A DNA stretch of 64,000 nucleotides from an uncultured Planctomycetia bacterium (GTDB lineage Bacteria; Omnitrophota; Gorgyraeia; Tantalellales; Tantalellaceae). The first letter of the stretch is position 1, and each line of letters begins with the position of its first letter. This document shows, piece after piece, positions 1 to 26,200 of this stretch. A program made the position numbers and the translations under genes. The stretch covers positions 182,539-246,538 of the forward strand of contig CAZNEE010000003.1 in the NCBI GenBank assembly GCA_964572255.1, in the 5' to 3' direction. The notes beneath the pieces were generated by a model. That model made no database searches. It was not told the origin of the DNA and saw nothing but the letters and a program-made list of their open reading frames with translations.

Positions 1-3000
1 CTTCACTTATATTAAAAAACGGATCGGCAGGTGTAACAGCCTTATTGACAACTTCCATGACGTCGGCATTGATGCCGAAGAAATCCACATCCATCTCGCC
101 GTCCGCAAGTTTTTCGGTATAGAGAAGGTCCCCCGTCTGGTCTCTGTGGTAAGTAACATCCATGAACTCGGGATTCGTGGCTGCCTCGTAATCCTTGACT
201 CCTGTCGCGACGATACCGCGTACATTATTGATCTCCGCCAAAGCCTGGATTGCCGTGGCATACGCCACTGAAAGTGCATTTCTTGCATCTATCACCAGAT
301 CCAAAAGATCGGGTTCCTCTCCGTCGATCTGATCCCATTGATCCAAAGCATCCTGAATGTCGCTTACAGCATCTGCGGTCTTTTGTTTTAAGGCGATATA
401 TGCGGGGTTGGAAGGATCCCTGTTAAGAATCTCCTGTGCCTTTTGATCGGCTGTCTGTGCTTTTGTTAAAGCTGCTGATAAAACATTTATTATCTGCCAG
501 GCTAACTGCTGCCCTTCGTTGGTTTCATACGTAATTTTGATACCAAAAGGACCGGTTATAGTGTGAGTTGTGCCATACCAGCCGTTATATGTCCCATAAT
601 CATTAATCCACTCTATGATCTCGTCGGCGGCCTCAATAACATCATAATAATACCAAGTGCCTGTAAAAATATCTCCCCAGAAATACGAAACTGTCTCCGA
701 TTCAAAATACGTGTTAACGACGCTTGATAAATTGATCAGCGCATCAGCATCAAGATCATTATTGTCTATATAAACTTCGCTCTGCAGAAGTTCGTTGATC
801 GTCTGAGTATCACCGCTTAAGACTGATCCTCCGACTTTTTCTATATGTTCGGCCGCTATCTCGTAGCGTATATCATATTCTTCCGGATCATAGGCATCCG
901 CATCTGTTGCCGGCGGATATGAATCATAGGTGTATGTATGTACTTCCGTGGATTCGACGGAATTATCGCTATCGGTAAGATATTCCGTTATCGTGGTCGA
1001 TTCTATCTGAAGCGGAGCATGAGCCGGATTAGATATATCAGTATCGCTGATATTAAAGACATTGACAGTGGTTGTTTTTCTCACGGCATCGCCGTCAATT
1101 ATGCCGTCATTATTTTGATCCGCGTCCCCATAATAATCTTCAGTGGTTCTTTCACTAAGGACTTTCGTCATGGACGGATAAGCCAGGCTGTAACCTTCCT
1201 CTTGAGACTGCCTGCTTGAAAGAGGATCCTCAAAAGTACTGGTCATCCTTCTGGTTGTGTGTATTATCTCTTCTTCGGTGGTTTCGCCAAAATCCCTGAC
1301 ATTGCCGGACTCAATAACTTGACTTACGAGATTGCCTCTCTCGTCATATTCCTCGGCCAACGTGCGTGAAAAGTCTATTGAACCGACATTTACGCCATAA
1401 TTTATTCCTGTATCAGTATTCAAAATGCCAACATGGTAGTAATTTCCCACAAGCCGGTCTATCCATCCCCAGTCTCCTGCGCCGGCAATAAGCGCATCGT
1501 ATTCAGTTTCATATCCCTGATGATCATGGTAGTTCATGATCAGATGCTTCAAATTAAAAGCCTCTCCACCGCCCTCGACCAGATGATAATTGTATGTTTC
1601 CCCTTCTATAAATGTCGGGTTCACCAGAGATTCGCCTACCTTGTCGTATTTTATGCTGGAAGTCGTTTTGGTGACCATGCCGGGCTGAGAAATACCCTGC
1701 GTGACACTGTTTATGTACGCGACATCCCCTCCGGCCTCAGTTGTATAGACAGTTGTAACTTCGGTCATGAGCATCTTATCCAAAGACATTTCTGAACCCT
1801 GAAGAAAGAGGAGATAGTCATCTTCATGCGTGTTATAAAGGTTGACGACCTGATCATAAATACCTTCAACTTCAGGTATAACAAGATCGATCTGATCTTC
1901 CAGTTCCTGTAACCTGGGTGAAATGTCCGCTATAACAGCGCTGTCAAGCGGCCATGGTGTGATCCAATAACTGAGTATCACATTGCATTCATCTGCCATG
2001 CTTTCAACTGCATCTATAGCATCCTGTAAAGTTTGAACAAAATCAGACGAAGGATCCAGCTGAGCAATTTCCTGCGCCAAAGGAAGTCTGTTTGTTAACA
2101 TGGTTGAAATGTTCGAAAGAAAATTCAATGCATTATTAATATCATTCATCATCCTCAAGAACTCTTGTTCCTTATTTTCCCAATTTCTATTTATAGCGCT
2201 AACTATCTGATCGTGCGCTGTATCTAAATAAGGTAAAACACCGGCTTCCATGGGAGGATCCATCGGAACAACATAAAATAACGCGTCCCGTATTTCTCTG
2301 CTGTTAACAGCTATTTGATAACTTGCCTCAAGCGCGGCTTCATCAAATTCTTCATATTCTATTCTTCTTGAGAATATGTTGCGGTCTTTTTCGTCATATT
2401 CCATATCATGCATCTCGAAATGATATGTCTGGTCGCCGCGTCTTCCGGATTCCTCGTAACTGGCGATATTGCCGTCTTCGTTATAGGTGATATTTTCCCT
2501 GGTAAATTCGTAATACATGCCGGTAGAAGTCCTGCCCTCTTCGCTGAACTGCATCATCTTGCCGTCAGCGTCATAATAGATATCCGATCTCACGCTCTGG
2601 AAATACCTGAGGTCGCCTTCAAAGGTCCTTATGGTCTGTACGTCCGTATAATCGGTACCGGCTTCGTGAGCTCTCTTGTAGCCCGTCTCGGTGCCGGGAT
2701 CGAACCATCCGTCACCGTTAAGGTCATCGTAATACAGATATATGGCGGTATTGGAAACATAATCCATCCCGTTCTCGTCATGAGTGTAATACGCTATCAT
2801 GTCGGTGGATTCTTCTCCCACCCCGCCCTTATAGTATGTTTCACTCGATAGGACCACGCCGTAAGTCTGTCCGAAAATAACCAGTTCTATAGCTCTTGAT
2901 ATCTGCCCCAAATGATATTCGCCGTAAGTTTGCCCCGGCAAAAGAACTCTGGCGTTGTCCAGAGCTTGAAGCAATGGATCAAGAAAATCCCGGTCCGCTT

Positions 3001-6000
3001 CGCCCCTGTCATGAAGATCGGTCACCCATGCTATAGCCTGATCAAGGGCATTTTCGCCCTGGTTATAGTCTTCGTCCTCAAAATAGGTATATGCGTCTTC
3101 AAGTGTTGTTCTGATAAGATCCAATTCGCTTGAAATTTCGTCAGCTGCAAAGCGCGATACGACCTTGGCCATGTAATCGCTCCTTGAGGCGTTCGAGGCT
3201 GTCGTGTAATCTGCCGCGTACAAATACTGGTTGATGTGGAGCTTGTTCACCGGATCACCCGATGTGTAGATCCAGGCATAATCGGATATTTCCTCGTTGT
3301 AATCTCCAATAAAGAAGGTCTTTGACCTTCTGCCTGTCGTGTAATCGCTGTGGACGAGAGGCACAATATCGGTTATCAGATCGCCTTCCAATAGTTTCTC
3401 TGTATTAAAAGTGGTCGAACTTACCTTCGGCGTTTCAAATACGGTATCGGAAGCCCTCTGTTGACCGTCCCCGTAGAAATTGACAGTGATCTGAGTATTG
3501 TCAAATTCATCCGGCCCGGGGGCCCCGCGGCCTTCCTTGCTGTAACTGATGGTGTAGTCGGCTATCTCATAACTCAAGGCTCCAACAAACCATGTTTCGG
3601 TCCTTCTTAAAGCGGGCGGTTCATTAACCGCATTAATAACGCCGTTATCCTCATCTATATCCAGGCCCTCTTTCTTGTTATATGTAACTGTGTGGGTCAA
3701 AGCGCCTGTAGCGGCATCATCATAGTAATAAATGGTCGTATTTCTGATGTTCGTCCCGTCCGTCCTGTACGCGTAAATCCAGAGAACCTGTTCCTCTCCT
3801 CTTTCCTCGTTCCTGTAATACGTAGCCTGCTGGAGGGTGTCGGCAATATCGGTGCCCCTTCTGGTCTCGCTCTTTGTCATGAACGACTCTTCGCTGACGC
3901 CTTCTTCATCCGCCAAGCTGTATCTTCCTTTTAGAGGATCGAAATTGAAATAATAATACCAGGTGCGGTTATCGATGGTCTCACCGTCGCGCTTATAATT
4001 GTCCGTATAATGTGATAATTCCGCGCCCGCATAACCGTGATAATAAGTCTCGCTTATCTTCATGACCGCATCCGGATCGGCTATACTAAAAGTGCCCAGG
4101 TCAGTATCTACGCTTAATCCCAGTTCCTTCCTGTAGACCGTACTTATCTCCATGCTACCGTCAGGCCTGTAGGTGTATTTACTTGTCGTCTTCACGGTAG
4201 TGCCGTCATACCTGTATTCCTGGCTCCAGTTCAGCCTTTCCTCGCCTTTTTCCTCGCCCTCGTAATAAGAGATCTGTTTTACAGCTAAGGGATCGGTGCC
4301 TCTGACCGTTATCGACCTGGTCATGTAAGAATCGGACCTTATGTCGGGAGCAGTGGCTTCGGTGTATCTTCCGGCATCAGTATAATAATAGTACCAGGTA
4401 CGGGTGAATACTGATTCATCCGGCAGGAATACATCGGTATAATCCGTTATTTCATCGCCCTTGCCGCCTGAATACCATGTCTGGCTTCTCTTCGCGCCAA
4501 GCGCCGCGGACGGCGGTATGGTATGCGGGTTATCACTGTCAGGAGTCCTTACAACATCGTCTTTATATATCGTAGTGTACTTAAGGCTGTTATCGTTCGC
4601 GGGATCATAGACATACAGAGTCGTAGTCCTGACCTCTTCACTGGCATTGTAATCCTGGCTGAATGAGATCCTCTCTTCGCCTTTTTCATCGCCCTCGTAA
4701 TAAGAGATCTGTTTTACGGGTGAAGTAAGTTCATCATCGCCTCTTGTAGTTATAGTCCTTGTCAGATACGATGCAGGCCCTATTCCCGGCGTGCTCGCGC
4801 GGGCGTACTTATGATCATCATCCGAATCATTGATAAAGTAATAGTACCATGTGCGCGTGGTAAGAGCGTTATTGCGGAAGCTGTCGGTGTAATCGATGAT
4901 CTCTTCGCCCCTATCGCCGTGATAGACCGTTTCACTCTTCTTGTCCAAAGTGAATACTTCAGCTTCCGGGCCCAGTTCAGGCGGTTCGACCCCCAGATCC
5001 TGGAACCGTTCTTCACCGTCAATATATATCGTGCTCTTCTGGAGGCTGTCATCAGGATTGTAGGTATAAACCGTAGTAGTCCTAACCTGCGTGCCGTTAA
5101 AGCTGTATTCCTGGCTCCAGGAGATCTGCTCTTCACCTTTTTCGGCGTTCTTGTAATAAGAGACCTGCGAGGTATACTGGCCGCTTTGCCTTATCCTTAC
5201 GTTTATGGTCCGGGTGATATATGAATACACCTCAGCATCCGCGGCCTGTGTGTACCTGTCCGAATCCGTATTATAATAATAAGTGATCTTACTATCCTCT
5301 ATATCGTTCTTGTAGTTGATGACATAGTCTATTATTTCCTCGCCTCTTTCCAGCTGATAAAAAGTGCGGCTTTCTTTTTCGAGGCTAAGCGCAACAGGAT
5401 CGGGGGCAGGTGCGGGATCGCCCGGCGCTGCCGGACCCCTTTCCGTATCGTCCTTGTAGACCGTTGTCCGCACTAATCTGTCATCAATGTTGCCGTATTC
5501 ATATATGGTCGTTGTCTTCACGTTTTCGTTGAAATTGTATTCCTGGGTCCAGCGGATCTGTTCTTCGCCTTTTTCCGTGCCTATGTAATAAGCTGCCTGC
5601 TTTAATTTATTAACACCCGCGGGATCTCTTCTTGAGATGGTCTTCGTCATGTAGGAATCTACATTGATCTGCGTATCAGACGCTTCGGCGTACCTATTTG
5701 CATCGCTGGCAAAGTAATAATATTTAGTGCGTACCGATTCTATTCCGTTAGTGTAGCTGCTTGCGTAATCGGCGATTTCTTCTCCTTTATCGCCTACAAA
5801 AACCGTCATGTTTCTTCTTACGGCATCGTCATCGCCCAGGCCGTCTTCATCTATCGCTACAGTGCCTGAAGTGTAGTCCGCGACTATGCCAATTTCGTCC
5901 CTATACACTACGGTTGATACTAGCGCATCTTCCGCGTCATAATTATAATTAGTCGTTGTCTTGATGGCTGTCGCGAGGTAATTATATTCCTGGCTCCAGG

Positions 6001-9000
6001 AGATCAGTTCCTCGCCCTTGACGGGGTTCTTGTAATATGTCTCCTGTTTAATGAGCGCATCTGGTGCCTGACCTCTTCTTGTCACGGTCCTGGTTATGTA
6101 AGAGTCGGGCCTTATGTCGCTGTCCGTCGCATAGGCGTATCTTTCAGCATCCGTGTGGTACTGGTACCATGTACGGGTATCAAAATTGCCGCTGAGCTTA
6201 TAATTGTCCGTGTAATTTGAGATCTCTTCGCCCTTGCCTCCTACAAACCATGTCTGGCTCTTTATTGCCCCCAGATCCGCAGACGGCGGTATAGTGCGCG
6301 GATAATCACTTTCGGGAGTTCTTTCAACGGTATCTTTATAAACCGTGCTGGATTTCATGCTTCCGTCAGTCGCGTCGTTATAATCAAAAATAGTCGTCGT
6401 TTTTACGGTTAAACCGTCATATTTATAATCCTGCGAGAAGTCCACCTGTTCTTCGCCTTTCACATCGCCGCGATAATATGAGACCTGTTTCATCCTGGGA
6501 TCAGCCCCCAAAGGATCCCTTATTATGACCGATTTTGTCATGTAGGAATCAGGATTAACACGGCTATCTGTAGCTCTGATATATTTATCCGTGTTATCCA
6601 CAAAATAATAGAAATACGTACGGGTATCTGTTGTTGTGCCGTCGCCCTTATAGTTATCGGTATAATTAGCTATCTCCTCGTTCTTGTCCCCGACGAACCA
6701 TGTCTGGCTCTTGAGAACGCCAAGCGGCGGTACAGGTACAACCGGAGGATCGACCTTAGGATTCTTGGATTCCGGCGTTCTTACTTCGTCATCTTTATAA
6801 ACTGAAGTGAACTTGAGGTTCCGGTCATCCGGATCATACGTATAAATAGTGGTCGTTATGACATTACTGCCCGTGTAATCGTATTCCTGGGTCCAGGAAA
6901 CCTGTTCTTCGCCTTTTTCCTCGTTCTCATAGTAGCTTATTTGTTTTAAAGCGCCTGCGGGATCAGTGCCTCTTCTCACTTCGCTCATCGTCATGAATGA
7001 ATCGGGGCTTACGCCGGTTTCCGTGGCGCGGGCGTATCTGTCTGCGGGACTGTAATAGAAATATCTTGTGCGGGTGTAAACATCTTCGCTGGCTGTGAAA
7101 CTGTCAGTATAATCGGCGATCTCCTCTCCCTTGTATCCGGCAAATACTGTTCTGCTTAGCTTTATGCCAAGATCGGCCGGGTCGGGCCTTGGAGCGGGAT
7201 CAAGAACTCCCGGAGGACCTCTCTCGGTATCATCTTTATACACTGTGCTTGACTGCATACTGCCGTCAGAATTATAAGCATAAAGCGTGGTCGTTCTTAC
7301 TTCATCCCCCATGTAGTTGTATTCCTGGCTCCATGCCGTCTGCTCTTCGCCTCTTTCCTCGTTCTCATAATAAGAGATCTGCCTTAATCTCTGGGTGCCA
7401 AGAGGATCCCTCACGGCCCGTGACTTTGTCATGTAAGAGTTGGGATCCAATGAGGCCAAGGCAGCGCCTTCATACCTGTTGGAATCCGTCCTGTAAAAAT
7501 AGGTTGTTCTTACATCGATCTCTGTGCCGTCCTCTTTGAACATATCAGTATAATCAGCAATTTCATCACCCTTATCTCCCTGGAACCATGTCTCGCTCTT
7601 TTTCACAAGACCAAGCGTTCCCGGATCCGGAGCGAGATAATCCGGCGCCGAGGGTATTCTCACCGTATCGTCTTTATACACGGTAGAGCGTTTCATGCTG
7701 TCATCCGTATTATATTCATATATAGTAGTAGTTATTACTTCCTCTATATGGTATTTGTATTCCTGGCTCCAGGCGATCTGTTCTTCGCCCTTTTCATCGC
7801 CTCGGAAATAAGCTACCTGTTTTAAAGAGGAAGTCGTGAAAGCCCCTCTTCTGGCTTCAGTCATTGTCATGTAAGAGTCGATCGTCACGCCGGCATCACT
7901 TGCTCTTGCAAAATTATCGGCATCGGTGTGATAAAAATATGTGGTGCGTGAAGTAACGATAGTGTTCTTGTAGTTAAATGAATAATCCGCTATTTCATCG
8001 CCCTTGCCGAGGTGTATATCAAAGAAGGTGGAACTCTTGATATTGGCCGGGTCTATATGATCCACCGCATCTTCGCCTGTGAACCCGGCTGTTGCTTTGT
8101 AGGTGTCCTGCCGGATCATCGCGTCATCCGCTTCCGCCGCACTTGCCCGTTTCTCACCAACGTAATAGAAAATACTGACTTCCGCGACGGTCGTGCCGTT
8201 CGCCGCGTAATTATAGGTGAAATCGGTTATCTCATTCCCCTTCCCTATATGTATATCAAAATAGGTCGAACTTCTGCGGTTACTGATAGCCACTTCGCCT
8301 ATTGAAAATGCTTTATGCGTATCCTGGCGCACCATGGCGTCTTCCGTTCCCGCCAGAGACGCCCTTACCTCGCCCTGATAGTAGAAAATACTTATAGTCC
8401 TTACGGTAGTTCCGCCTTTCTTGTAGCCGTATGAATAGTCCGCTATTTCATCGCCCTTGCCGAAACGCGTATCAAAGAAAGTAGAACTTGTGCGGGTTGT
8501 CTTATTCTCCTCATCGATAAACTGTATAGCATCATCCCCCTCATGGCCTTCCACGGCTTTATATGAATCCTGTTGGATCATTGCGTCTTCCGATTCCGCA
8601 AGGCTGGCTCTTTTGCCTCCCCAGTAATACGAAATTGACACTGACCTCACGGTCGTACCATCGGACCTGTAGCCGTATGAATAATCGACTATTTCATCGC
8701 CTTTGCCCAAATGTATGTCGAAGAATGTCGTGCTCTTGCGGTTGGTATCGGCTACCAGTAAAATCGAAGTTGTCTCATAAGTATGCTGTTTTATCATGGC
8801 GTCTTCTGTTCCCGCTTCGCTTGCCCTCACGCCGCCCTGATAGAAGAAAATATTAACCGTCCTTGCGGTCGTGCCGTCGGACCTGTAGCTGTATGAATAA
8901 TCGGCTATTTCATCGCCCTTGCCGAGAACGGTACTGAAGAATGTCGAACTTCTGCGGTTGGTATCTGCTATTGTATTTATGGAGTTTGTTACATGCGTGT

Positions 9001-12000
9001 CCTGGCGGACCATGACATCTTCCGCCTCGACAAGGGATGCCCTCTTAGCATCCGCGCTGTAATAGAACACTCCTACTGTTCTTACGCTTATACCGTCGCC
9101 TCCATAGTTATAAGTATAATCGACTATTTCGTTGCCTTTACCCAGGTGAATATCGAATATGCTTGAACTCTTGCGGTTGGTCTTATTTTCCTCATCGATG
9201 TAGTTGATAGCGTCCTCTCCCGTGAACCCGACAACGGTCTTATAGGTATCCTGCTGCACCATCGCGTCTTCCGTCGATGCCAGGCTTGCCCTTACCTGTG
9301 TAGTATCCTGATAGTAGAATATACCGACCGTTCTGACGGTAGCACCGTCACCGCCGTAAGTATAGGTATAATCTGATATCTCCTCGCCCTTGCCGAGGCC
9401 TGTGTAGAAGAAGGTTGAACTCTTGCGGTTGGAAACTGCTGCCGCGAAAATAGAATCTGCTTTGTGAGTATCCTGCTGTATCATCGCATCAGAAGTATTT
9501 GCTTCACTTGCCCTCTTGTCGCCTTGATAGAAGAAGACACCCACGGTTCTTACGGTTGTCCCGTCAGCGGCATAGTTATACGTATAGTCAGAAACTTCAT
9601 CTCCCTTGCCGAGATGTGTGTCAAAGAAGGTGGAGCTTCTGCGAGTCGTGATACTTATATTAAGGATCGAATCGGTTTTGTGCGTATCCTGGCGGATCAT
9701 CGCGTCTTCTATGCCTGCCGCGCTTGCCCTTACGCCGCCCTCATAGAAGAAAACTCCCACCGTAATTACTGTTGTTCCGTCACTTGCATAAGTATAGGTA
9801 TAATCCGCTATCTCATCGCCCTTACCGAGATTGGCATCAAAGAACGTTGAGCTCTTACGGTTGTCCTCGCTTATCTCTCCGATAGAAGTCGCTACGTGCG
9901 TGTCCTGACGCACCATTACATCTTCAACCCCTGATTCGCTTGCTCTTTTTTCGCCCAAATAATAGAAAACACCTACTGTTCGCGCGGTCGATCCATCGCC
10001 GCCGTAATTATAGGTATAATCGACTATCTCATCGCCCTTGCCGAGATGTGCGTCGAAGAAACTTGAACTCTTGCGGTTTATGATAGCTATATTATCGATC
10101 GAATCCGTGATATGAGTATCCTGGCGGATAAGTACATCCTCCGACTCTGCCAGAAAAGCTCTCTTTTCGCCGTAATAATAAAATACGCCTACCGATCTGA
10201 TGCTTGTCCCGTCACTACCGTAGTTGTATATGTAATCGGCTATTTCCCCGCCTTTACCGAAATGAATATCAAAGAAGGTAGAACTCCTGCGTTCTTTCTT
10301 AGTGGCAATATCGATGTGATCCACCGCGTCCTGGTCCGTAAAACCTTCGGCTGCCTTATATGAATCCTGCTGGATCATGGCGTCTTCCGTTCCCGCTTCG
10401 CTTGCTCTTCTTTCTCCCTGATAATAGAATATCCCGATCGTTCTCACGGTCGTTCCGTCGCTGGCATAGTTGTACGTGTAATCCGCGATCTCATCGCCCT
10501 TGCCGAGACGTACATCAAAGAAGGTCGTGCTCCTTCGGGTGGTATCAGTTATTGAAAGGATCGAATCCGCCCTGTGGGAATCCTGTTTCATCAGCGCGTC
10601 TTCCGAACTCGCTTCGCCCGCCCTCTTATTATCATCATAGAAGAAAACGCCTACTGTCTTTACTATAGTGCCGCCTAAAGCATAGCTGTAAGTGTAGTCC
10701 GCGATCTCATCGCCTTTCCCGTAAGTTATATCGAAGAATGTAGAACTCTTTCTGTTTTCTTTGGTTGTATCATTTACCTCTCCTATACCGCCGACTTCAT
10801 ATGTATCCTGCTGTATAAGAGAGTCTTCATCAGACGCAAGGGAAGCTCTCTTGTTCCCTTCATAATAAAATACTCCTACAGTTTTAACTGTTGTACCGTC
10901 ATTGCCGTAACTATAAGTATAGTCGGCTATTTCATCGCCTTTGCCTATATGAGCATCGAAGAATGTCGAACTCTTGCGATTGGCATTCTCCGCCAGATCA
11001 ACAGAAGCGGCAACATGCGTGTCCTGCCTTATGAGCACATCATCCGCTTCTGCCGTATTTGCCCTCTTTTCGCCCTGATAGTAGAAAACCCCTACGCTTC
11101 TTACGCTTGTACCGTCGCCTCCGTAGTTATAGGTATAATCGACTATTTCGCTGCCTTTGCCGAGATGAATATCGAAGAAGGTCGAATTCTTTCTGTACTC
11201 TTTAGTCGCATCATTTACCTGCGTTATGTGTGATACCTTATATGTATCCTGCCGGATGAGTGCATCCTGCGAACCTGCTACGCTTGCCCTGTTGTCCCCC
11301 TGATAATAGAAAACTCCCACCGTTCTTACCACCGTTCCGCCGACACCATAGTTATACGTATAATCTGATATCTCATCGCCCTTGCCCAGATGTATATCAA
11401 AAAAGGTTGAATTTCTGCGGTTAGACAATGATACGTTGAGGATCGAATCCGTCTTGTGTGTATCCTGGCGAACCATGGCGTCTTCTGAGCTGGCTTCATT
11501 TGCTCTCTTTATGCCCTGATAATAGAATATCCCTACTGTCTTTACTATCGTGCCGCCCGAAGCATAACTGTATGTGTAATCGGACACTTCATCACCTTTA
11601 CCGAATCTAATGCTGAAGAAGGTCGAGCTTTTTCTGCCTTCTTTTGTTCCGGTATCAATAAAATCTATTGCGTCATCGCCTCTTTCGCCCTCTTCGGTCT
11701 GATATGAATCCTGCTGGATCATGGCGTCCTCCGAACCGGCTGAAATTGCTCTCTTGTCCCCTTCATAATAGAAAATGCCTACTGTCTTTACTGTAGTTCC
11801 GTCGGAAGCATAATTATACGTAAAATCTGCGATCTCATCGCCCTTGCCGAGATGTGTATCAAAGAAGGTCGAGCTCTTGCGGTTACCCTCGGCAATAAGA
11901 TCAACTGAACTTGCATTATGAGAATCCTGTCTGATAAGAAGATCTTCAGCTTCAGCAAGTGATGCTCTTTTTTCTCCGCTATAGTAGAAAACCCCTACTG

Positions 12001-15000
12001 ACCTTACCGAAACTCCGTCACCGCCGTAGTTATAGGTATGGTCTGATATTTCGTTGCCTTTACCGAGATGTATATCGAAGAAAGTCGAACTCTTGCGGTT
12101 AGTCTTATTCACTTCATCTATAAAGAGGATCGCGTCCGATCCGGTATGGCCTTCCGTGGTCTTATATGTATCCTGCTGTACCATAGCGTCTTCCGTTGAC
12201 GCCAGAGATGCCCTCAACGCGGTAGTATCTTTATAATAGAATATCCCTATACTTCTGACTGTCTCACCGTCATAACCGTAATTATAAGTATAATCGGCTA
12301 TTTCATCGCCTTTACCGAGGTGGATATCAAAGAATGTTGAATTCTTACGGTTAGAAAGTGCTACATTGAGAATTGAATCTGTCTTGTGGGTATCCTGCTG
12401 GATGAGCGCGTCTTCTATTTCGGCTTCGCTCGCCCTCTTCGCTCCTTGATAGAACATTATACCTACCGTTCTTACCGTAGTTCCGTCACCGGCATAAGTA
12501 TAGGTATAATCCACTATCTCATCGCCTTTACCGAAACGGTGATCAAAGAAGGTTGAACTCTTTCGGTTAGTATTAGCGATCTTTAAAATTGAATCTGTCT
12601 TGTGTGTATCCTGCTGGATAAGCGCATCCTCTGTGCTTGCAAGAGACGCTCTCTTGCCGTCCTGGTAGAACATCACACTTACGTTCCTTACCGTCGCGCC
12701 GTCGGAAGCATAGCTGTATGAATAATCAGCTATTTCATCGCCCTTACCGAAACGCGTGTTGAAGAATGTTGAGCTCTTCCGGTTGCTTTGGGCGACTTCC
12801 CATATTGAAGTGGCTATGTGAGTATCCTGTCTTATCAGGGCGCCTTCGGGGTCGGACAAGCTTGCCCGTTTTTCGCCTGTATAATAAAAAACGCTCACGG
12901 TCCTTACGGTCGAACCGTCATAACCGTAATTATATGAGTAGTCTGCCGTTTCTTCGCCTTTGCCGTGAGTCGTATCGAAGAAAGTCGAACTCTTTCGATT
13001 GGCATTTTCTACTAGATCAATAGACCCGGCTTTATGCGTGTCCTGGCGAACAAGGGCATCTTCCACGCTGGCGAGACTGGCTCTTACAGGATCTGGTTCT
13101 CCCTCATAATAGAATACTCCCACGGTCCTTACAAATTCTCCGTCACCGCCGTAGGAGTAATTATAATCTGCTATCTCATCGCCTTTCCCTAAATGAATAT
13201 CAAAGAAAGTCGAACTTCTGCGGGTTGTGGTGGTTACATTATAGATCGAATCTATCTTGTGGGTATCTTGCTGGACCATTGCGTCTTCAACATTGGCAAG
13301 ATCGGCTCTTACAGGATCTGTTTCTCCCTCATAATAAAAAACGGCAACTGTTCTCACGGTGGTCCCGTCACCGGCATAGTTGTAGCTATAATCCGCTATC
13401 TCGTCGCCTTTGCCGAGATGTGTGTCAAAGAATGTTGAACTCTTGCGGTTGGTATCAGCAATATTAAAAATAGAATCTATCTTGTGGGTGTCCTGCCGAA
13501 TAAGCGGATCATCCGCTTCCGCAAGGGTCGCTCTTTTGCCTCCATGGTAATAGAAAACACCCACTATTCTTACGGTCGTTCCGTCAAGCCCGTAGGTATA
13601 TGAATAGTCCGCTATTTCTTCGCCCTTGCCGAGCTGTGTAGCGAAGAAAGTTGTATTTTTGCGGTTGGTTTGGGCAATATCGTAGATTGAATCCGCTTTA
13701 TGAGTATCCTGCTGTTCCATAGCATCTTCAATAGCTGCCCCGCTTGCTCTATTCCCGCCCTCGTAATATAGAACCGCTACCGTTCTCACGGTCGTTCCGT
13801 CGCCTGCATAGTTATAACTGAAATCTGCGATCTCATCGCCTTTACCGAAACGCGTATTGAAAAAGGTTGAACTCTTGCGGTTTGCATATTTGATCTTATC
13901 GATCGCGGAAGTTTTATGAAGGTCTTGCCTTATCAGGGCGTCTTCCGTTTCCGCCTCGCTTGCTCTTATATCACCCTGGTAATAGAAAACACTCACTGTT
14001 CTTACAGTTATTCCGTCGCCGCCGTAACTGTATAGGTAGTCCGCGATCTCATTGCCTTTGCCATGATCTACATCAAAAAATGTTGAGGACCTGCGGGTAG
14101 TAAGGGTTACACTGTAAATTGAATTTGTCTTGTGCGTGTCCTGTCGGATCATCGCATCCTGCGAACTCGCTTCGCTGGCCCGCTTGAAAGCTTCATAATA
14201 GAAAACACCAACAGTCCTTACGGTTGTTCCATTGGAAGAATAATTATAGCTGTAATCCGCGATCTCATCGCCTTTGCCGAGATGTATATCAAAAAATGTT
14301 GAGTTTCTCCGGTTAGTTTCAGCAACTTTATAAATTGAATCTACTTTATGTGTATCCTGCTGTATGAGCTCATCTTCCGATTCAGCCAAAGTAGCTCTTT
14401 TACCTCCAACATAATAAAAAACTCCCACTGTCCTTACGGTCGTGCCGTCACTGCCATAAGAGTAACTGTAATCTGTTATTTCCTCGCCTTTTCCGTGTTG
14501 TACAGCAAAGAACGTGGAACTCTTCCGGTTGGTTTCGGCAATATCGTAGATCGACCCGGCTCTATGCGTATCCTGCTGTACCATCGCGTCTTCCGAACTT
14601 GCTTCGCTTGCCCTCTTGCCCCCCTGATAATAGAAAACACCAATTGTTCTCACGGTTGTTCCGTCAGAAGCGTAGGTATACGTGTAATCGGCCACCTCAT
14701 CTCCCTTGCCGAGATGTATGTCAAAGAATGTTGTATTGATACGGTTATCTAACGCAACATTGCCGATCGAATTCGTTTTATGGCTGTCTTGATAGATAAG
14801 GGCGTCTTCCGGTCCGGCTACGCTTGCCCGCTTATCTCCCTCGTAATACATAACGCCCACTGTCCTTACCGTTGTACCGTCTCCGGCATAACTATACGTG
14901 TAATCGGCTATTTCCGATCCTTTACCGAGATGCGTATTGAAGAAAGTCGAGCTCTTGCGGTTGGTATCGGCTATTTTTAAAATTGAATCCGTCTTATGTG

Positions 15001-18000
15001 TATCCTGCCGGATCAAAGCATCCTCTACGCTGGCCAGAGATGCCCTCTTTTCGCCCTGGTAATAGAAAACGCCTATTGATCTCACTGACACCCCGTCGCT
15101 GCCATAGGTGTAAGAGAAGTCCGCTATTTCGTCTCCCTTGCCGAGATGAATATCAAAGAAGGTCGAACTCTTGCGGTTGGTTTGGGCGACCTTGAAAATT
15201 GAATCTGTCTTGTGTGTATCCTGCTGGATCATCGCGTCTTCTACGCCTGCTTCGCTTGCCCTCTTGCCGCCCTGATAGAAGAAAATACCTACGTTTCTTA
15301 CTGTAGTTCCACCTCCCGCATAATTATAGCTATAGTCTACTATTTCTTCACCCTTGCCGAGATGTATATCAAAGAACATTGAGCTCTTGCGGTTGGTATC
15401 AGCTATTTTAAAAATTGAATCCGTCTTATGTGTATCCTGCTGTACTAATGCGTCTTCTGTCCCCGCTTCACTTGCCCTCTTTATGCCCTGATAATAGAAA
15501 ACACCCACACTTCTTACGGTCGTTCCGTCCAAGCTATAGGTGTAGGTATAATCCGCTATCTCGTCGCCTTTGCCATACGTCGTATCAAAGAAAGTTGAAC
15601 TTATACGGTTAGAAACGGCACCCTGAAAAATAGAATCTGTCTTGTGTGTATCCTGCCGGATCATCGCGTCTTCTGACTCCGCTACGCTTGCTCTCTTGTC
15701 TCCTTCATAATAGAACACTCCCACTGTCCTTACCGTTGTCCCGTCACCTGCATAGTTATAGCTGTAATCGGCTATTTCGTCGCCTTTCCCGAGATGTATA
15801 TCAAAAAAGGTTGAACTCTTGCGGTTAGTATCAGCGATCTTGTATATTGAATCCGCCTTATGTGTATCCTGCTGAACCATCGCGTCTTCCGATCCGGCAA
15901 GAGATGCCCTATTATCATCCTCGTAATAAAAGACATTAACCGTTCTTACGGTCGTACCGTTAGAAGCATAGGTATAGGAATAATCCGCTATTTCGCCGCC
16001 TTTGCCGTGAGTTATATCGAAGAAAGTCGAACTTCTTCGGTTCTCCTTGCTTGCCTCATTAATAAAGGAAATAGCATCCGATCCGGCATGACCTTCTGTA
16101 GCCTTATATGTGTCCTGCTGGATCATCGCGTCTTCCGTTCCGGCAAGAGATGCCCTATTCCCTCCCTCGTAATAGAAAATACCTACGTTTCTTACTGTAG
16201 TTCCATTGCCCGCATAATTATAGGTATAGTCTGCTATCTCTTCGCCTTTACCGTGATGTATATCAAAAAAGGTTGAACTCTTGCGGTTAGTATCAGCGAC
16301 CTGAAAAATAGAAGCTATCTTGTGGGTATCCTGCTGGATCATCGCGTCTTCTACGCCCGCTAAAGACGCTCTCTTTGCGCCCTGATAATATAGAACACTC
16401 ACGGTTCTTACTGTAGTACCGTCGCCGCCGTAATTATAGGTATAGTCCGCTATCTCATCGCCTTTTCCGAGATGTGTTTCAAAGAAGGTAGAACTCCTGC
16501 GGTTAGCCAAAGCTGCATTGCTGATCAGACCTGTTTTATGCGTATCCTGGCGGCTGAGAGCATCTTCCACTTCTGCCAGAGACGCTCGTTTATCCCCTTG
16601 ATAATAAAATACGCCTACTGTTCTTACGGTAGTTCCGTCGCCCGCATAATTATAAGTATAATCGGCAACTTCCTCGCCTTTACCTAAATGTATATCGAAA
16701 AAGGTCGAACTTACCCGGTTAGTATCGGCGACTTTGTAAATTGAATCTGTTTTATGGGTATCCTGTCGGATCATCGCATCTTCCGGTCTTGCCAAAGATG
16801 CCCTTCTTTCCCCTTCAAAGAAGAAGATGTTTACAGTCCTTACGGTTGTTCCGTCACCGCCGTAATTATAGGTATAATCTGTTATTTCTTCGCCTTTGCC
16901 GAGATGTATGTCAAAGAAAGTGGAGCTCTTGCGGTTGGCATCGGCTATTTTGAGGATAGAATCGGTTTTGTGCGTATCCTGGCGGATCATCGCGTCTTCC
17001 GATCCCGCAAGATTGGCTCTATTGTCTCCCTCGTAATATAAGACAAGAACATTTCTGACCGTTGTGCCGTCACCGGCATAGCTATAAGTATAATCCGCTA
17101 TTTCGTCACCTTTACCCAGGTGGATATCAAAGAAAGTGGAGCTTTTGCGGTTGGTATCGGCAATATTGTAGATCGAATCTGCTTTATGCGTATCCTGACG
17201 AACAAGAGCATCTTGCGAACCTACTTCGCTTGCCCTCTTTTCGCCTTCGTAATATAGAACAGATACCGTCCTGACCGTTGTTCCGTCACTTGCGTAACTG
17301 TAAGTATAATCCGCGACTTCGTCTCCCTTACCCAAATGGATCTCAAAGAAAGTGGAACTTTTGCGATTAGTTTTATTGACTTCATCTACATAATCGATCG
17401 CATCCTGATCCGTGTGATCTTTGTCTGCCGCATACGTATCCTGCTGGATCATCGCGTCTTCCGCTTCCGCAAGATCAGCTCTCTCGCCTCCCTCGTAATA
17501 CATTATTCCTATAGTCCTTACCGTGGTACCGTTAGACGCATAGCTATATGTATAATCCGCTATTTCTTCGCCTTTACCGAGATGAGGATCAAAAAATGTA
17601 GAGTTTACCCTATTATCCAGCGCTATTGTTCCTATTGAATCTGTCCTGTGCATATCCTGACGAACAAGGGCATCTTCATGCTCCGCCAAACTTGCTCTTA
17701 CATCTCCCTGATAATAAAAAACTCCCACAGTTTTTACAGTTGTTCCGTTGGAAGTGTAATTGTAGATGTAATCCGCTATTTCTTCGCCTTTACCGAGATG
17801 TATATCAAAGAAGGTTGAACTTGTACGGTTATCTAAAGCGACATTCGAAATTGAATCCGTTTTATGGGTATCCTGCTGGATCATTGCGTCTTCCGAACTG
17901 GCTTCGCTTGCCTTCACATTGCCCTGGTAGAAGAAAATACCGACCGTTCTTACGCTTGTTCCGTCGGACGCATAGCCATAGTTATAATTTGCGATCTCAT

Positions 18001-21000
18001 CGCCTTTGCCGAGATGTATATCAAAAAAGGTTGAACTTGTGCGGTTCTCATCCTTTACATTGTCGATCGAATCCGTCCTATGTGAATCCTGCTGGATGAG
18101 GGCGTCTGTTACTTCCGCTAAACTTGCTCTTACATCATCCTGATAATAGAAAACCCCCACTGTTCTTACAACCGTACCGGTACTGTCATAATTGTAAGTG
18201 TAATCCGCGACTTCATCTCCCTTGCCGAGATGTACATCAAAGAAAGTCGAACTTCTGCGGTTATCTAAAGCGACTTTTGAAATTGAATCTGTTTTATGAG
18301 TATCCTGCTGTACCATCGCGTCTTCCACTTTTGCAAGAGACGCTCTTACATCCCCCTCATAATACATAACACCAACAGTTCTCACTGTAATGCCATCACT
18401 TGCATAATTATAGGTATAATCCGCTACTTCCTCACCCTTGCCGTGATGTATATCAAAGAATGTTGAGTTTGTTCGATTGGCATCTTCTACTGCACTGATC
18501 GAGGTAATGTTATGAGTATCTTGTCTGATCAAAGCATCATCTGTTCCTGCCAGAGATGCCCTATTGTTACCTTCATAATACATAACACTTACTGTTCTTA
18601 CGGTCGTTCCGTCACCTGCATAATTATAGGTATAGTCGACTATCTCGTCTCCCTTGCCGTGATGGATATCAAAGAAAGTGGAATTTTTACGATTGGTATC
18701 CGCAATTTCGTAAATCGAATCTGCTTTGTGGGTGTCCTGCTGGACCATCGCGTCTTCCAAGCCCGCTTCACTCGCCCTTACACCGCCCTGATAGTAGAAA
18801 ATACCTACCGATCTTACGGTCGTTCCGTCATTCGCGTAGGTATAAGTATAGTCTGATATCTCATCGCCCTTACCGAGATGTATATCAAAGAAGGTCGAAC
18901 TCTTTCGGTTTTCCTCGGCAATACTGTTAATTGAGTCCGTCTTATGCGTATCCTGCTGGATCATCGCGTCTTCCGCTACCGCAAGAGACGCTCTTACATT
19001 CCCTTCATATAAGAAAACGCCCACGGTTCTTACTGTTGTGCCGTTAGATGCGTAACTATAGGAGTAATCTGCTACCTCATCGCCTTTACCGAGATGAATA
19101 TCATAATATGTTGAACTTCTGCGGTTATCTAAAGCGACATTGCCGATCGAATCTGTTTTATGGCTATCCTGGCGTATCATCGCGTCAGCAGCTCTTGCAA
19201 CGCTTGCTCTTCTTTCCCCTTCATAATAGAAAACACCTACTGATTTCACATTTACACCGTCAGAATAACTATAGGTATAATCCGCTATTTCCTCGCCTTT
19301 CCCGAGATGTATGTCAAAGAAAGTCGACGCCTTACGGTTTGAATTGTTTACGTCTCCAATAGTGTCTGCCTTGTGTGTATCCTGCTGAATAAGCGCATCG
19401 TCCGCTCCTGCAAGATCCGCTCTATTCCCTCCCTCGTAATAGAAAACCCCTATTGACCTTACTACTGTTCCGCCCGCTCCATAAGTATAGGTATAATCCG
19501 TTATTTCATCGCCCTTACCAAGATGAGTGTCAAAGAAAGTCGAACTTACGCGGTTATCATTCTCTACTAAGTCGATTGATATGGTTCTGTGGGTATCCTG
19601 CTGGACCAATGGATCATCCACTCCGGCCAGGCTTGCCCTTACGCCTCCATCGTAGAAGAAAACACCTACGGTTCTTACGGTCGTCCCATTAGAAGCATAG
19701 CTATAAACATAATCCGCTATTTCATCGCCTTTACCTAAATGTATATCAAAGTATGTAGAACTTTTCCTGTCTTCAAAAGTCGTGTCGTCAACTTCATCTA
19801 TAGACGATTTCCGGTAGCTATCCTGACGGACCATTTCATCGTTCGTACTGGCCAGACTTGCCCTTATCTCGCCGTTATAATAGAACACGTTCACTGTTCT
19901 TACATCCGTTCCATTACCCGCATAGTTATAAGAATAATCCGCTATTTCCTCGCCCTTGCCGTTATGAATATCGAAAAAGGTGGAGGATCTTCTTGTTTCA
20001 ATGTCATCTAACGCATTCTGCAGTGAATCCGCCCTGTGTGTATCCTGCTGGATCATCGCATCTGCCAGAAAAGCTGCACTTGCCCTTTTGTCCCCTTCAT
20101 AATAGAAAATCCCGACGCTTGTAACGGTCGTGCCGTTAGAAGCGTAACTATACGTATAATCAGAAACTTCCGAACCCTTCCCTAAATGTGTATCAAAACG
20201 TGTCGTGGATATTCTCGTATCGATATTATTGACAGCTTCAGTTATTGATGCGGCATCATGTGAATCCTGTTTAGATAGCGGGAAATAACTTTCAGAAACG
20301 GAAGCCCGGTCGTCATTATCCCCGTAATAAAGGATGTTCACGGTTTTTACCGTCACGCCGTCCGGTTTATAGCTGTAGGTAAAATCCCCGATCTCTTCAC
20401 CCTTGCCGAGATGGATATCAAAAAAGGTGGACGATTTTCTTGTAGTAATATCGGCCAACGCGGATGCCAGTGAATCTGTTCTATGAGAATCCTGCTGGAT
20501 CATCGCATCTTCCGGAGTTGCATCTACGGCCCGCTTATCACCTTCGTAATAATATATACTCACGTTCTTGACCACAGTCCCGGTTTTATCATAATTGTAA
20601 GTATAATCCAGGACCTCTTCACCTTTTAGCCTTGTCGCAAAATCGAAAAATGAAACACTGTCGAGCTGGCTTACATGCGCATCGATCACGCCGTCAGGTT
20701 CGGTATCCGGGTTTAGCGGATCGATCTGGCCTCGATACGTTACCTGTCTGCTCATGCGGTCACCCGTATCGGAACCGGCTGCTCTTTGAAGGCCGGCTTC
20801 GTATAAATACACTACCGTTCTCGAAACCTCCTGGTCGGCATTATATCTTTCGGTATAGTCGTTAATTTCCTCGCCCTTGATCCTTCCTTCATAATGCATG
20901 TAATTCATGCTTGAGAGCTGTTCTTCCGCGCCGACCAAGATGCCTCTTGCGTCCGTAGCGGCCTGGATATCGGCAATTTCTCCGGAATAAACTACATTGA

Positions 21001-23524: not shown

Positions 23525-23912
23525 TTCACACCTACTAGCTTCCAGCACTTATTTATATCAAAGTTAAATACTTTTATTAATACTTTATAAAAAACTTAAA
23601 TAACATGCATAAAAAAAAGAGATTTCCACATCTCTCCCCTTTTTCCTGATACAGTATAATTATATCATATATATAGGTGAAATGCCTAAGAAAAAAATGC
23701 TAACTTTTTTTTACCTTACAAGACAGAGCTTAATAAGTATCCTTTTCCGGGATTATGAGTTATAAGTCCTTAAAAATGAAGAATTTAAGCAGCTAAATGT
23801 ACCTTTTTGTTGTTTTGCTTTTGCAATGAAAATTATTATCTTTCTCTAATACAGCTCGATCGTACCATAATATTTCTTGTTCTTCCGATAAACTTTAGCT
23901 ATACTTTATGCG
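23525..23912. promoter_or_regulatory. AT-rich divergent intergenic region between gene A (minus) and the glycosyltransferase gene (plus). It probably holds both promoters.
   Basis: 388 bp, very AT-rich, non-coding in all frames. On the minus strand an extended -10-like TGATATAAA (complement of 23551-23560) lies ~27 nt upstream of the gene A ATG. TATAAT-like motifs occur on the plus strand (for example cagTATAATtat near 23653-23658). A short AT-rich hairpin AGAGAT-ttccac-ATCTCT at 23618-23635 is followed by a T8 run on the minus strand. Confidence 0.35.
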
Positions 23913-25976
23913 ATGAAAAAAGACAATAAAACAATATTACTGCTTAGTATTTTACTTGTGATGATCGGATTCGGTGTTTACGCAAACTCGCTTCCCAATC
24001 AATTTGTTTGGGACGATATACACCTTATCAAGAACAATCAAGATATAAAAAGCATCTCTTTGGCAAATCTTAAAACGATATTCACTCATGACATAATGTA
24101 CTTCCTCGAACGCAGTAATTTCTACCGCCCTCTTCAATCCCTCTCGTACATGCTTGATTATAAACTTTGGGGAGAAAACGCTTACGGCTTCCGTCTCATC
24201 AATATACTGATCCATTGCATAAATAGCATTATTATTTTCCTGCTTCTATATCGTCTCTGGCGTAACATGGCTGCTTGCTTTTTAAGCTCACTCTTTTTTC
24301 TGGTGCATCCTTTAAATGTTTCCGCAGTTTCCTACATTGCCGGAAGAGCTGATCTACTGGCCCTCATGTTTTTATTGCTTTCAACAGTATTTCTTTTTAG
24401 ATTCAAAGGATCGGAAACGTTTTTTAATGGCGCGGTCAGCATCCTTTTTTTTATTTTCTCTCTACTTTTAAAAGAGATATGCATTATTTTCCCTGTTTTT
24501 ATTTTTGTTTTTCTATATTTTTCAAAAGAAAATTCCAAAAATTTTACGAAAAATGAGAAATTGTTTATTTCTGTATATCTTTTAATTACAGTAACTTATG
24601 TAATTTTAAGGTTGACTTTATTGAAGTTTACATCCCTGTCCGCTCAGGCCATAAATGCTCCGGATCTTTATTCGCGTCTTTTATCCGCCGCTCCATTTAT
24701 CATTACATATTTGAGACTCATCATACTACCATATGATCTCAGGATGGACAGAGATTTTCAAATACCGACAACAATAATGGACTGGCGCGTGATCGGTGCG
24801 GTGCTCTTGCTTGCCGGAATTATTTATTTTTTCATAACATACGTCAAAAAAGAAAAAACTATCGCTTTGGGAGCAGCCTGGTTCTTTGTATTGCTTTTCC
24901 CTTCGTTGAATATAATCATTCCTTTGAACGCGCCTGTATCAGAGCATTGGCTGTACATACCGTTCTTCGGGATAACGGTGATCCTGGCGTACTTGATCTC
25001 TTTAGTATTCAGGAAAGTACAACTGCCAAAAAACCTTATCTATCTTGGCTTTACATTGATACTTTCGGTTTATGCCGGAACAACGGTACACCTCAATAGG
25101 CAATGGCGAAACGCAGAAACGCTTTTTTCCTACATCACAAAATTCCAACAGGTCCACTGGCGTTCCTACTACAATCTCGGCAGACAGTATTATGAAAACG
25201 GTAAATATCAAGAAGCTATAGAAGAGCTCCAAAAAGCTATTGATGCTAATCCGGAATATTATGAAGCCCTTGTATATATGTTTCTGTCATATGCGAATAT
25301 CGGAGATATCGATCAGGCATCTGAATATTTTACCAAAGCCATAAAAGTAAAACCCAAATCCAGCATAACCTATACCATTTTCGCGCAAGCACTTAAAAAA
25401 GCAAAAAAATCAGATGATGCCGCTAAGATGTACGAAACAGCTATCCGGCTGGATGAAAAAAATATCGATGCCTATAATGCCCTGGGAATAATTTATGCGG
25501 AAAAAGGCCAATATGAAAAGGCCGAAGATATATGGAGCAAGGCCTCTAAAATAGATCCTGATTCTAAAGAAATAAATGCGAATTTAGAAAGACTTTCCAA
25601 AGTAAAAAGTGCACTTCTGACCGAACATATCAAAAAAGGAGATAAATATGCATCCGAGGGTAAATACATTTCGGCGATAAAAGAATATGAAAAGGCCCTG
25701 GAAATTGATGATAAAAATACTTCGATCCATAACAATTTAGGAGTTTTATACGGACTGACCGGAAAAGATGATGCGGCAATAGCTGAATTCGAAAAAGTCA
25801 TTGATATAAATCCAAATAACGCAGGCAGTTACAAGAACATTGCCATAATATATGCCAAATACCCCGAAAAACATGATAAAGCAATAAAATACCTCCGGCT
25901 GTATCTTGAGTTTCCCCTTCCGGATACCGAGCGAAAAAAAGTTGAAGAATCTATAGAAAAGCTGAGAGAGCAATAA
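23913..25976 (+). CDS. GT-C fold glycosyltransferase, protein O-mannosyltransferase-like (PMT_2 / TMTC type), with C-terminal TPR repeats.
   Basis: The ORF encodes 687 aa. The N-terminal ~400 aa are polytopic, with about 10 hydrophobic helices. The first-loop motif VWDDIHLIKNN and YRPLQSLSYMLDYKLWG are typical of PMT_2/TMTC-type O-mannosyltransferases. The C-terminal ~260 aa (about 25150-25976) contain at least 5 TPR-like 34-aa repeats, for example YYNLGRQYYENGKYQEAIEELQKAIDANPEY, AYNALGIIYAEKGQYEKAEDIWSKASKIDPD and IHNNLGVLYGLTGKDDAAIAEFEKVIDINPNN. Confidence 0.75.
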   Translation: MKKDNKTILLLSILLVMIGFGVYANSLPNQFVWDDIHLIKNNQDIKSISLANLKTIFTHDIMYFLERSNFYRPLQSLSYMLDYKLWGENAYGFRLINILIHCINSIIIFLLLYRLWRNMAACFLSSLFFLVHPLNVSAVSYIAGRADLLALMFLLLSTVFLFRFKGSETFFNGAVSILFFIFSLLLKEICIIFPVFIFVFLYFSKENSKNFTKNEKLFISVYLLITVTYVILRLTLLKFTSLSAQAINAPDLYSRLLSAAPFIITYLRLIILPYDLRMDRDFQIPTTIMDWRVIGAVLLLAGIIYFFITYVKKEKTIALGAAWFFVLLFPSLNIIIPLNAPVSEHWLYIPFFGITVILAYLISLVFRKVQLPKNLIYLGFTLILSVYAGTTVHLNRQWRNAETLFSYITKFQQVHWRSYYNLGRQYYENGKYQEAIEELQKAIDANPEYYEALVYMFLSYANIGDIDQASEYFTKAIKVKPKSSITYTIFAQALKKAKKSDDAAKMYETAIRLDEKNIDAYNALGIIYAEKGQYEKAEDIWSKASKIDPDSKEINANLERLSKVKSALLTEHIKKGDKYASEGKYISAIKEYEKALEIDDKNTSIHNNLGVLYGLTGKDDAAIAEFEKVIDINPNNAGSYKNIAIIYAKYPEKHDKAIKYLRLYLEFPLPDTERKKVEESIEKLREQ

Positions 25977-26107: not shown

Positions 26108-26200
26108 ATAGCTAGTTAAAGAACAAAAAGTGTTCTCTCATATAAAATATCAATATATTTAATATTGTTCATTATTAATATAAAAACGAAAGAGAGTAAT

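Follow-up and report, generated by a model that had tools for sequence, protein, structure and literature searches.

A giant Omnitrophota gene with an old array of 57 protein-level repeats and a predicted Rhs-like beta-sheet fold

Background

Giant proteins of Omnitrophota are thought to mediate attachment to other cells or attack on them; the literature ties them to adhesion and cell-wall degradation, and most of their sequence is unannotated. The present work deals with a giant gene from this phylum, referred to as gene 1, whose product carries a tandem array of 57 modules of about 72 amino acids (aa), predicted to form a continuous antiparallel beta-sheet on the scale of four modules. The gene lies in a stretch of 64,000 nucleotides (the window) of contig CAZNEE010000003.1, positions 182,539 to 246,538 of the forward strand, in assembly GCA_964572255.1. 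The assembly is deposited as an uncultured Planctomycetia bacterium and is placed by GTDB in Omnitrophota (Gorgyraeia; Tantalellales; Tantalellaceae).

West-Roberts et al. (2023, bioRxiv 10.1101/2023.11.21.568195, Fig. 5) reported that Omnitrophota giant proteins contain hollow "antiparallel beta-helix" tubules of about 1,500 aa, predicted with AlphaFold and Rhs-like in character. The tubules carry regularly spaced pairs of alpha helices on the exterior, and dockerin-type proteins are among those showing them. The same authors found divergent SecA_DEAD domains in most Omnitrophota giant proteins.

Nielsen and Lui (2026, bioRxiv 10.64898/2026.06.07.730766) showed that repeat scaffolds are the rule in the long proteins of Omnitrophota and that the nucleotide tandems have been dissolved by synonymous change while the protein repeats are kept. 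Out of 916 long proteins, 137 were Pfam-dark, and structure prediction was named as future work. A third system for comparison is the family of Rhs/YD shells, which comprises TcB-TcC, the Rhs effectors of the type VI secretion system and the teneurins. As is predicted for the array described here, a strip of consecutive beta-hairpins forms one long antiparallel sheet in these shells.

Anatomy of the array and of the gene that holds it

Gene 1 occupies a single open frame of 7,849 codons on the minus strand (23548..2), which continues past the window start. The likely start codon is the ATG at 23527, with AGGTG just upstream. This delimits a gene at 2..23527 (minus strand) that encodes at least 7,842 aa, has its 3' end beyond the window and contains no Pfam or NCBIfam family above threshold. 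The motif GKG.E recurs at regular spacing 57 times in the protein, and cutting the sequence at these anchors yields 57 head-to-tail modules at 7910..20524 (minus strand; aa 1009-5213). Their consensus reads ASLA..EDAMIRQDTHKTDSI...A..NRKSSTFFD.HLGKGDEIADYTYNYA.DGTTVRTVGVFYY.G.KR. The spacing is mostly 72 aa, with seven intervals of 82-84 aa, a last one of 79 aa and a few of 71-75 aa. Tandem Repeats Finder independently returned periods of 216 and 432 bp with 64-67% matches. The original prediction, made by a model from the letters and a list of open reading frames (ORFs), had placed about 57 tandem 72-aa modules at 7940-20640. The number and length of the modules were borne out, whereas the limits had to be refined to those given above, and the strand, which had been left unstated, turned out to be the minus one. 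The same prediction called the peptide core almost invariant, which is too strong: 11 of the 72 columns are invariant among the 38 canonical copies, and column identity averages 75%. With a net charge of -244, no Cys and an abundance of Asp, Thr, Gly, Ser and Tyr, the strongly acidic array has a composition that would fit an extracellular location.

The array is the central part of a longer run. A hidden Markov model (HMM) of the module detects 83 units in the gene 1 protein, from aa 395 to 6768, i.e., a continuous run of about 83 units, or about 6,400 aa, belonging to one beta-hairpin repeat family. Judged from the HMM matches and the sequence, the run begins with some seven to eight looser units of 85-100 aa at 20525..22366 (minus strand), which bear long acidic loops such as DKDGDGQIDDEY and TEPDGVIDAH. 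It ends with about 20 units of 72-77 aa each at 3239..7909 (minus strand), identified in the same way, in which two subtypes, KSQTWF.GDKGEEIADYTDNY and KQ.SYY..EKGEEQ..WSQEY, alternate to give a double unit of about 145 aa.

At the N-terminus, a basic tail (RRKR) precedes a hydrophobic segment, aa 47-73, the two together lying at 23330..23410 (minus strand). This is the only strongly hydrophobic segment in the visible protein, and it is followed by the juxtamembrane motif FSP..(Q)QQ.RHEDII. The tail, the segment and the motif are all shared with homologs. Segment 47-73 is read as a putative signal anchor or signal peptide that would put the repeats outside the cytoplasm. At the other end, a non-repeat C-terminal region (aa ~6771-7849) covers 2..3238 (minus strand), the true C-terminus lying off the window. 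Isolated EF-hand/dockerin-like loops, DIDKDGDGQIDDEY and DQNNDGIIDGDAVR, occur at aa 447-462 and 7477-7490 (about 22165-22210 and 1081-1120, minus strand). They fall below Pfam detection and are reminiscent of L014, a dockerin-rich homolog described below.

Divergence, age and selection

Divergence was calculated pairwise from a codon alignment of all 57 modules. Identity between copies averages 0.61 for amino acids (range 0.29-0.85) and 0.64 for nucleotides (range 0.42-0.79); for adjacent copies the mean nucleotide identity is 0.65 (range 0.51-0.73). Synonymous differences reach a proportion of 0.76, with 54% of the pairs past Jukes-Cantor saturation, while the proportion of nonsynonymous differences (pN) is 0.25 and the median ratio of nonsynonymous to synonymous change (dN/dS) is 0.15. 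Residues kept in at least 51 of the 57 copies are written with many codons: all six Arg codons occur at a conserved Arg, and all four Gly codons at the glycines of GKG. Given the saturation at synonymous sites, a dN/dS of about 0.15, the mixed codons and the fact that no pair exceeds 79% nucleotide identity, the copies are old duplicates maintained by purifying selection at the protein level, and both assembly collapse and recent slippage are excluded for the array. The original prediction of an old array, with each module under purifying selection and without recent slippage expansion, thus agrees with these data. Its warning sign, near-identical DNA copies, did not appear on comparison of the copies with one another. 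The copies are indeed diverged in DNA, as it held, although its figure of roughly 70% identity between neighbours is somewhat high.

Module order retains a weak super-period of four modules (288 aa). The identity at lag 4 has a z-score of 5.9 for nucleotides and 7.6 for amino acids relative to permuted module orders. Old duplications of four modules at a time may lie behind it, or else a structural register in which each turn takes four modules. A search for segmental duplications in the array gave weak signals alone, namely the similarity of modules 38-39 to modules 51-52 and the lag-4 period itself. In homolog L001 the module copies are more alike than those of the window, with a mean nucleotide identity of 0.73, values up to 0.94 and a two-module period, and some database fragments of the family (P0001, P0002) consist of four identical tandem modules. 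Because these copies are so much more alike, array turnover varies by lineage, the window array being old and that of L001, to judge from its copies, far younger or more homogenised.

Long-loop modules and the His/Tyr position

Eight modules are longer than the rest, and all of them have Tyr in place of the His of QQDTH. On the minus strand, modules of 82 aa are numbers 15 (17234..17479), 21 (15908..16153), 41 (11504..11749), 47 (10160..10405) and 55 (8363..8608), and modules of 84 aa are numbers 39 (11966..12217) and 52 (9044..9295). The last module, number 57 (7910..8146), has 79 aa and grades into the following repeat type. In addition, modules 4, 43 and 45 combine insertions of 3 aa with Tyr, and module 54 has Tyr with no insertion.

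The His position was compared across 301 aligned modules of the family. In the window protein, His is found 45 times, with no extra loop length, and Tyr 13 times, with a loop longer by 6.6 aa on average. Among 53 modules of close homologs, 51 have His. In distant homologs, Tyr or Phe occupies the position in 147 of 190 modules, and the loops are somewhat longer. The upstream units of the window protein read ..TYRG.. followed by acidic loops (TEPDGVIDAH) and resemble the long-loop modules (TGSDAILFIDE). Because distant members commonly combine Tyr or Phe with a longer loop and the upstream units look alike, the long Tyr form is probably the family-wide state that has been kept, and the compact His module a derived, subfamily-specific one; we hold this with moderate confidence. 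The original prediction had named exactly these eight long copies and noted their change of His to Tyr, and the numbers are confirmed. Its description of the extra residues as an insertion probably reverses the polarity. One might speculate that the compact His modules and the interspersed long acidic Tyr loops act as metal- or Ca-dependent latches.

Sequence family and relatives

With the gene 1 protein searched in two halves, covering all 7,849 aa, Pfam returned nothing at E<=1. The NCBIfam scan gave two rows, both far below the cut-offs, and no YD model among them. In PDB sequences, the module profile found chance nanobody matches alone (E>2). Specifically, neither RHS_repeat (PF05593, Pfam at E<=1) nor YD_repeat_2x (TIGR01643) matches within the 7,849 aa; as a positive control, the same profiles do match the C-terminal part of L001. 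By pattern search, the motif YxYDxxGR[LI] does not occur in the array, and two loose YD..G[RNK] matches lie elsewhere in the protein. The alignment of the module profile with the YD units of L001 by hhalign has a probability of 0.8%. The Rhs core/autoprotease motif PxxxxDPxGL was not found in the 7,849 visible aa, the true C-terminus being off the window.

A word-indexed search with four modules retrieved 16 proteins, all of them fragments. When 1.84 billion representative proteins were searched exhaustively with the HMM, 167 were retrieved at E<=1e-3, of which 27 at E<=1e-30. The family is thus rare, and it is without a model in the Pfam or NCBIfam libraries. A module-pattern scan of one genome per species identified 11 loci, ten in metagenome-assembled genomes of Candidatus Omnitrophota and one in a genome labelled Planctomycetia, and metagenomes of the Joint Genome Institute (JGI) added seven. 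The best relative locus has about 63% nucleotide identity to the window; L014, on a 73-kb metagenome contig, is at about 63% and is a relative at a separate locus.

In homologs with a visible N-terminus, the basic tail and the transmembrane helix recur, as does a juxtamembrane motif with KHEDII at its end. Downstream of the modules, the homologs differ from one another. L001 continues with genuine RHS repeats (PF05593, 5e-20; TIGR01643, 9e-8), L003 with four Laminin_G_3 lectin-type domains and L016 with FlgD_ig/Por_Secre_tail; in L014, 34 modules are followed by ten Dockerin_1 domains. All these downstream domains are of extracellular type. P0039 has a TSP3_bac repeat. As to L001 itself (JGI 3300041082, Ga0452208_003764), its array at 1718-11557 holds 29 modules or more, in which the segment DDCLIQQDTH includes a Cys; upstream on this contig there are frame breaks, with two short ORFs of the same repeat.

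Predicted structure

Modules 22-25 (15044..15907, minus strand) were modelled with AlphaFold2 using an alignment of these four query modules with 13 non-overlapping blocks from the window and 30 blocks from homologs. The model has a mean predicted local distance difference test score (pLDDT) of 96.4 and a predicted template modelling score (pTM) of 0.88. Each module contains four beta-strands, corresponding roughly to MIQQDTH, SSTFFDIH, EIADYTYNY and TTVRTVGVFYY, and the strands of successive modules join one continuous antiparallel meander sheet. The helical turns are short, two before the second strand and one after the fourth. Conserved aromatics (F34, F35, Y48, Y50, Y52, F65, Y66 and Y67) are accompanied by conserved His, Asp and Gln. 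The confidence of the model is local, on the four-module scale, and a ribbon, a closed tube or a cocoon would each be an extrapolation from it.

When the model was compared with PDB by Foldseek, Rhs effectors, teneurins and TcB-TcC/YenBC shells made up all of the 11 best matches (E 2e-5 to 9e-3); the best entries include 8uxt, 8qjb, 8qjc, 9ifo, 7ban, 8cp6 and 7pq5. In the library of viral structures (BFVD), the matches are MORN hairpin-repeat proteins. The original prediction had described the hairpins as reminiscent of YD/Rhs repeats while deviating from the YD consensus, and it had expected its claim to novelty to fall with a confident profile match to a known family. Both halves of the description are in line with the results, since the RHS/YD profiles and motifs fail and the best structural matches, local ones, are nevertheless Rhs-type shells, and Pfam, NCBIfam and PDB sequences offer no such match.

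Comparison with described systems

Gene 1 has several traits in common with the proteins of West-Roberts et al. It is an Omnitrophota gene for a giant, membrane-associated product with Pfam-dark repeat regions of Rhs-like character. The modelled sheet is continuous and antiparallel with regular short helices, represented here by helical turns in each module. The dockerin type is one of the two types in which the beta-helix was reported, and the array has a dockerin-rich homolog in L014. The proteins differ in scale and layout. The published segments are of about 1,500 aa as compared to a repeat run of about 6,400 aa here, the tube shape being predicted for the former and extrapolated for the latter. 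Furthermore, the published proteins exceed 30,000 aa and have many transmembrane helices, whereas the gene 1 protein has at least 7,849 aa and a single N-terminal anchor. In Pfam searches, no SecA domain was matched in the visible gene 1 protein, nor were dockerin or TSP3 repeats or sets of glycosyl-transferase, hydrolase and methyltransferase domains.

With the tandem-repeat scaffold class of Nielsen and Lui, gene 1 shares the dominance of one unit in copy number and the dissolved nucleotide tandems, exactly as measured here. Membership of that class depends on one Pfam family (TSP3, NHL, ConA-like and others) being dominant, whereas the gene 1 protein has no Pfam match and would join the 137 Pfam-dark proteins.

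The Rhs/YD shells are linked to the array by L001, in which modules and true RHS repeats are fused in one protein. The repeat unit itself is different: a 72-aa module of four strands with helical turns, as compared to profiles of 38 (RHS_repeat) and 42 (YD_repeat_2x) positions. The Rhs and Tc chains matched have about 660-2,200 residues in total, and the whole Rhs chains among the best Foldseek matches about 1,000-1,400, so that the repeat run in gene 1 is several times longer. MORN repeats and single-layer hairpin sheets of the OspA type are more remote, having no sequence relationship to the module, another unit length and low template modelling scores (TM-scores). The MORN profile (PF02493) has no match in the gene 1 protein, and the resemblance is at the level of the fold, in BFVD alone.

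The kind of structure in question is already described, by prediction, for Omnitrophota giant proteins, and so are DNA-diverged repeat scaffolds; the novelty implied by the original prediction is therefore lower than it seemed. The repeat family itself is unannotated in the libraries searched.

Interpretation and alternatives

We favour the reading, with a probability of roughly 0.6, that the array forms the main body of an Rhs-like beta-sheet stalk, either a ribbon or a coiled, possibly hollow beta-helix, in an N-terminally anchored extracytoplasmic giant surface protein, where its role would be that of a scaffold, with variable distal domains presented to another cell. This reading builds on how the repeats are laid out and selected, on a local fold predicted with confidence, on the taxon, and on what the homologs show, namely a conserved anchor at the N-terminus and partner domains of extracellular type. 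According to this proposal, each 72-aa module would add four antiparallel strands to an uninterrupted meander sheet that locally resembles the strip from which Rhs, teneurin and Tc-toxin shells are built. The array would then act as a structural scaffold and project the variable C-terminal domains off the cell, towards the surface of a host or prey. It could take the shape of a long ribbon, but an "antiparallel beta-helix" stalk, coiled and possibly hollow, is more likely. An architectural function of this sort could explain why every module is under purifying selection while its synonymous sites randomise. At four strands per module and about 4.8 Å per strand, the contour of the sheet over all 57 modules would be very roughly 110 nm; supposing four modules to the turn and a pitch of about 3 nm, a tube would be some 40 nm long, again as a rough estimate.

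Several points weigh against the favoured reading. The gene 1 protein is known here from its gene, and from it we infer the extracellular location, the higher-order shape (ribbon or tube) and a role in spacing or adhesion. A 16-module AlphaFold2 model (1,158 aa) has a pLDDT of 25; its alignment was made of overlapping blocks, with rows staggered by MAFFT. Global TM-scores to the Rhs shells are low (0.11-0.24), so the likeness to them is local, within the hairpin strip. The likeness to the beta-helix of West-Roberts et al. is by published description and local architecture. Finally, no homolog of the visible C-terminal region of about 1,050 aa turned up in a search of 5.8 billion proteins, nor did any Pfam match, the true C-terminus lying off the window.

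A stalk of this kind would bear on what Omnitrophota giant proteins do at the surface of other cells. The array supplies a high-confidence building block, a usable profile, a selection signature, an anchor and homologs with interchangeable extracellular heads. The idea of an Rhs-like beta-helix stalk thereby becomes testable, and the profile could annotate this dark-matter repeat in other genomes. The finding reveals no new principle.

A bolder version of the stalk appears rather unlikely to us. Here, the 72-aa module would represent a repeat family not described before, coiled with 16 strands (four modules) to the turn into a hollow nanotube that measures tens of nanometres in length, and an ultra-small Omnitrophota cell would use this protein tube as a conduit or spike for contacting or tapping its host.

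It is likewise possible, but on the unlikely side, that each module is a ligand-binding unit, for instance for cell-wall glycan, in the manner of choline-binding, YG glucan-binding or MORN repeats, and that the array is a multivalent surface for the envelopes of prey or host. The ladders of conserved aromatics with their His, Asp and Gln would suit such a role, as would the MORN matches, the lectin and dockerin partners in homologs and the literature on giant proteins in adhesion and cell-wall degradation. However, the searches of Pfam, NCBIfam and PDB revealed no known binding repeat that resembles the module in sequence or profile, and the conserved aromatics alternate over both faces of the sheet, as packing predicts. 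Binding and scaffold roles are, moreover, compatible with each other.

That gene 1 encodes a true Rhs/YD polymorphic toxin, the modules forming one or more closed cocoons that deliver a C-terminal toxin freed by the Rhs aspartyl autoprotease, is distinctly improbable. The idea draws on the Rhs and Tc shells as best structural matches, on the joining of modules to genuine RHS repeats in the close homolog L001 and on the fact that the C-terminus of the window protein lies beyond the window. It is opposed by the lack of any RHS_repeat or YD_repeat match in 7,849 aa even at E<=1, by the absence of YxYDxxGR from the array and of PxxxxDPxGL from the visible protein, and by the hhalign probability of 0.8%. 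In addition, a repeat run of some 6,400 aa is several times what a cocoon needs, the TM-scores do not exceed 0.24, and other homologs terminate with lectin or dockerin domains where a toxin would be expected.

The possibility of an artefact of assembly or annotation, whether through collapse or expansion of a repeat or through a repetitive non-coding stretch open by chance, is effectively refuted: repeat arrays do misassemble readily and P0001 and P0002 do hold identical modules, but with no two copies above 79% nucleotide identity reads are uniquely placeable, the frame stays open for 23.5 kb, dN/dS is 0.15 with invariant residues in diverse codons, and independent homologs occur in other metagenomes.

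Neighbouring genes

Divergent from gene 1, a gene at 23913-25976 (plus strand) encodes a 687-aa protein with strong TPR repeats. Its N-terminus has a match to PMT_2 (protein O-mannosyltransferase-like) slightly below the Pfam cut-off (25.8 vs. 26.1 bits). As a speculation, this TPR/PMT_2-like protein could glycosylate the Ser/Thr-rich modules. Next, at 26165-30829 (plus strand) and between the two giant genes of the window, lies a gene for a protein of 1,554 aa composed almost wholly of HEAT/PBS-lyase repeats (HEAT_2, E 5.6e-125). In relatives, the surroundings include transporters: at L009 (341-6707), and probably also at L010, L017 and L018, two AcrB-type genes of the resistance-nodulation-division (RND) family are located directly upstream of the module gene on the same strand (ACR_tran, E 1e-227 to 1e-237). 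No AcrB-type RND gene adjoins the module gene of the window.

The second giant gene (31020-63842, minus strand) encodes 10,940 aa. It carries SecA_DEAD (E 1.5e-39), the SecA preprotein-binding domain (PPXD) and a SecA P-loop at about 38142-39941, and in its divergent SecA_DEAD domain it is like the SecA-bearing giant proteins of West-Roberts et al. (2023). Almost no other Pfam matches were obtained; a long hydrophobic block rich in Ala, Val and Ile spans aa ~6150-6600. The SecA-like module might help to export the neighbouring repeat protein.

The second giant gene has a tandem repeat of its own. A unit of 195 bp (65 aa), ...SFNG..F.STVARLN..T.D.TKAFA.AIK.ATGEEMSAISAAVMMAGMDSFF..., is repeated at 48356-49559 and is coded on the minus strand. 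Tandem Repeats Finder counts 6.2 copies, and the translation suggests up to about 10. The copies match one another at 76-78% in DNA and are thus closer to each other than the 72-aa modules are. Both giant genes also contain antisense ORFs of 150-450 aa, at 17626-18099 and 48085-53229 (plus strand), which are most likely by-products of the repeat composition, not genes.

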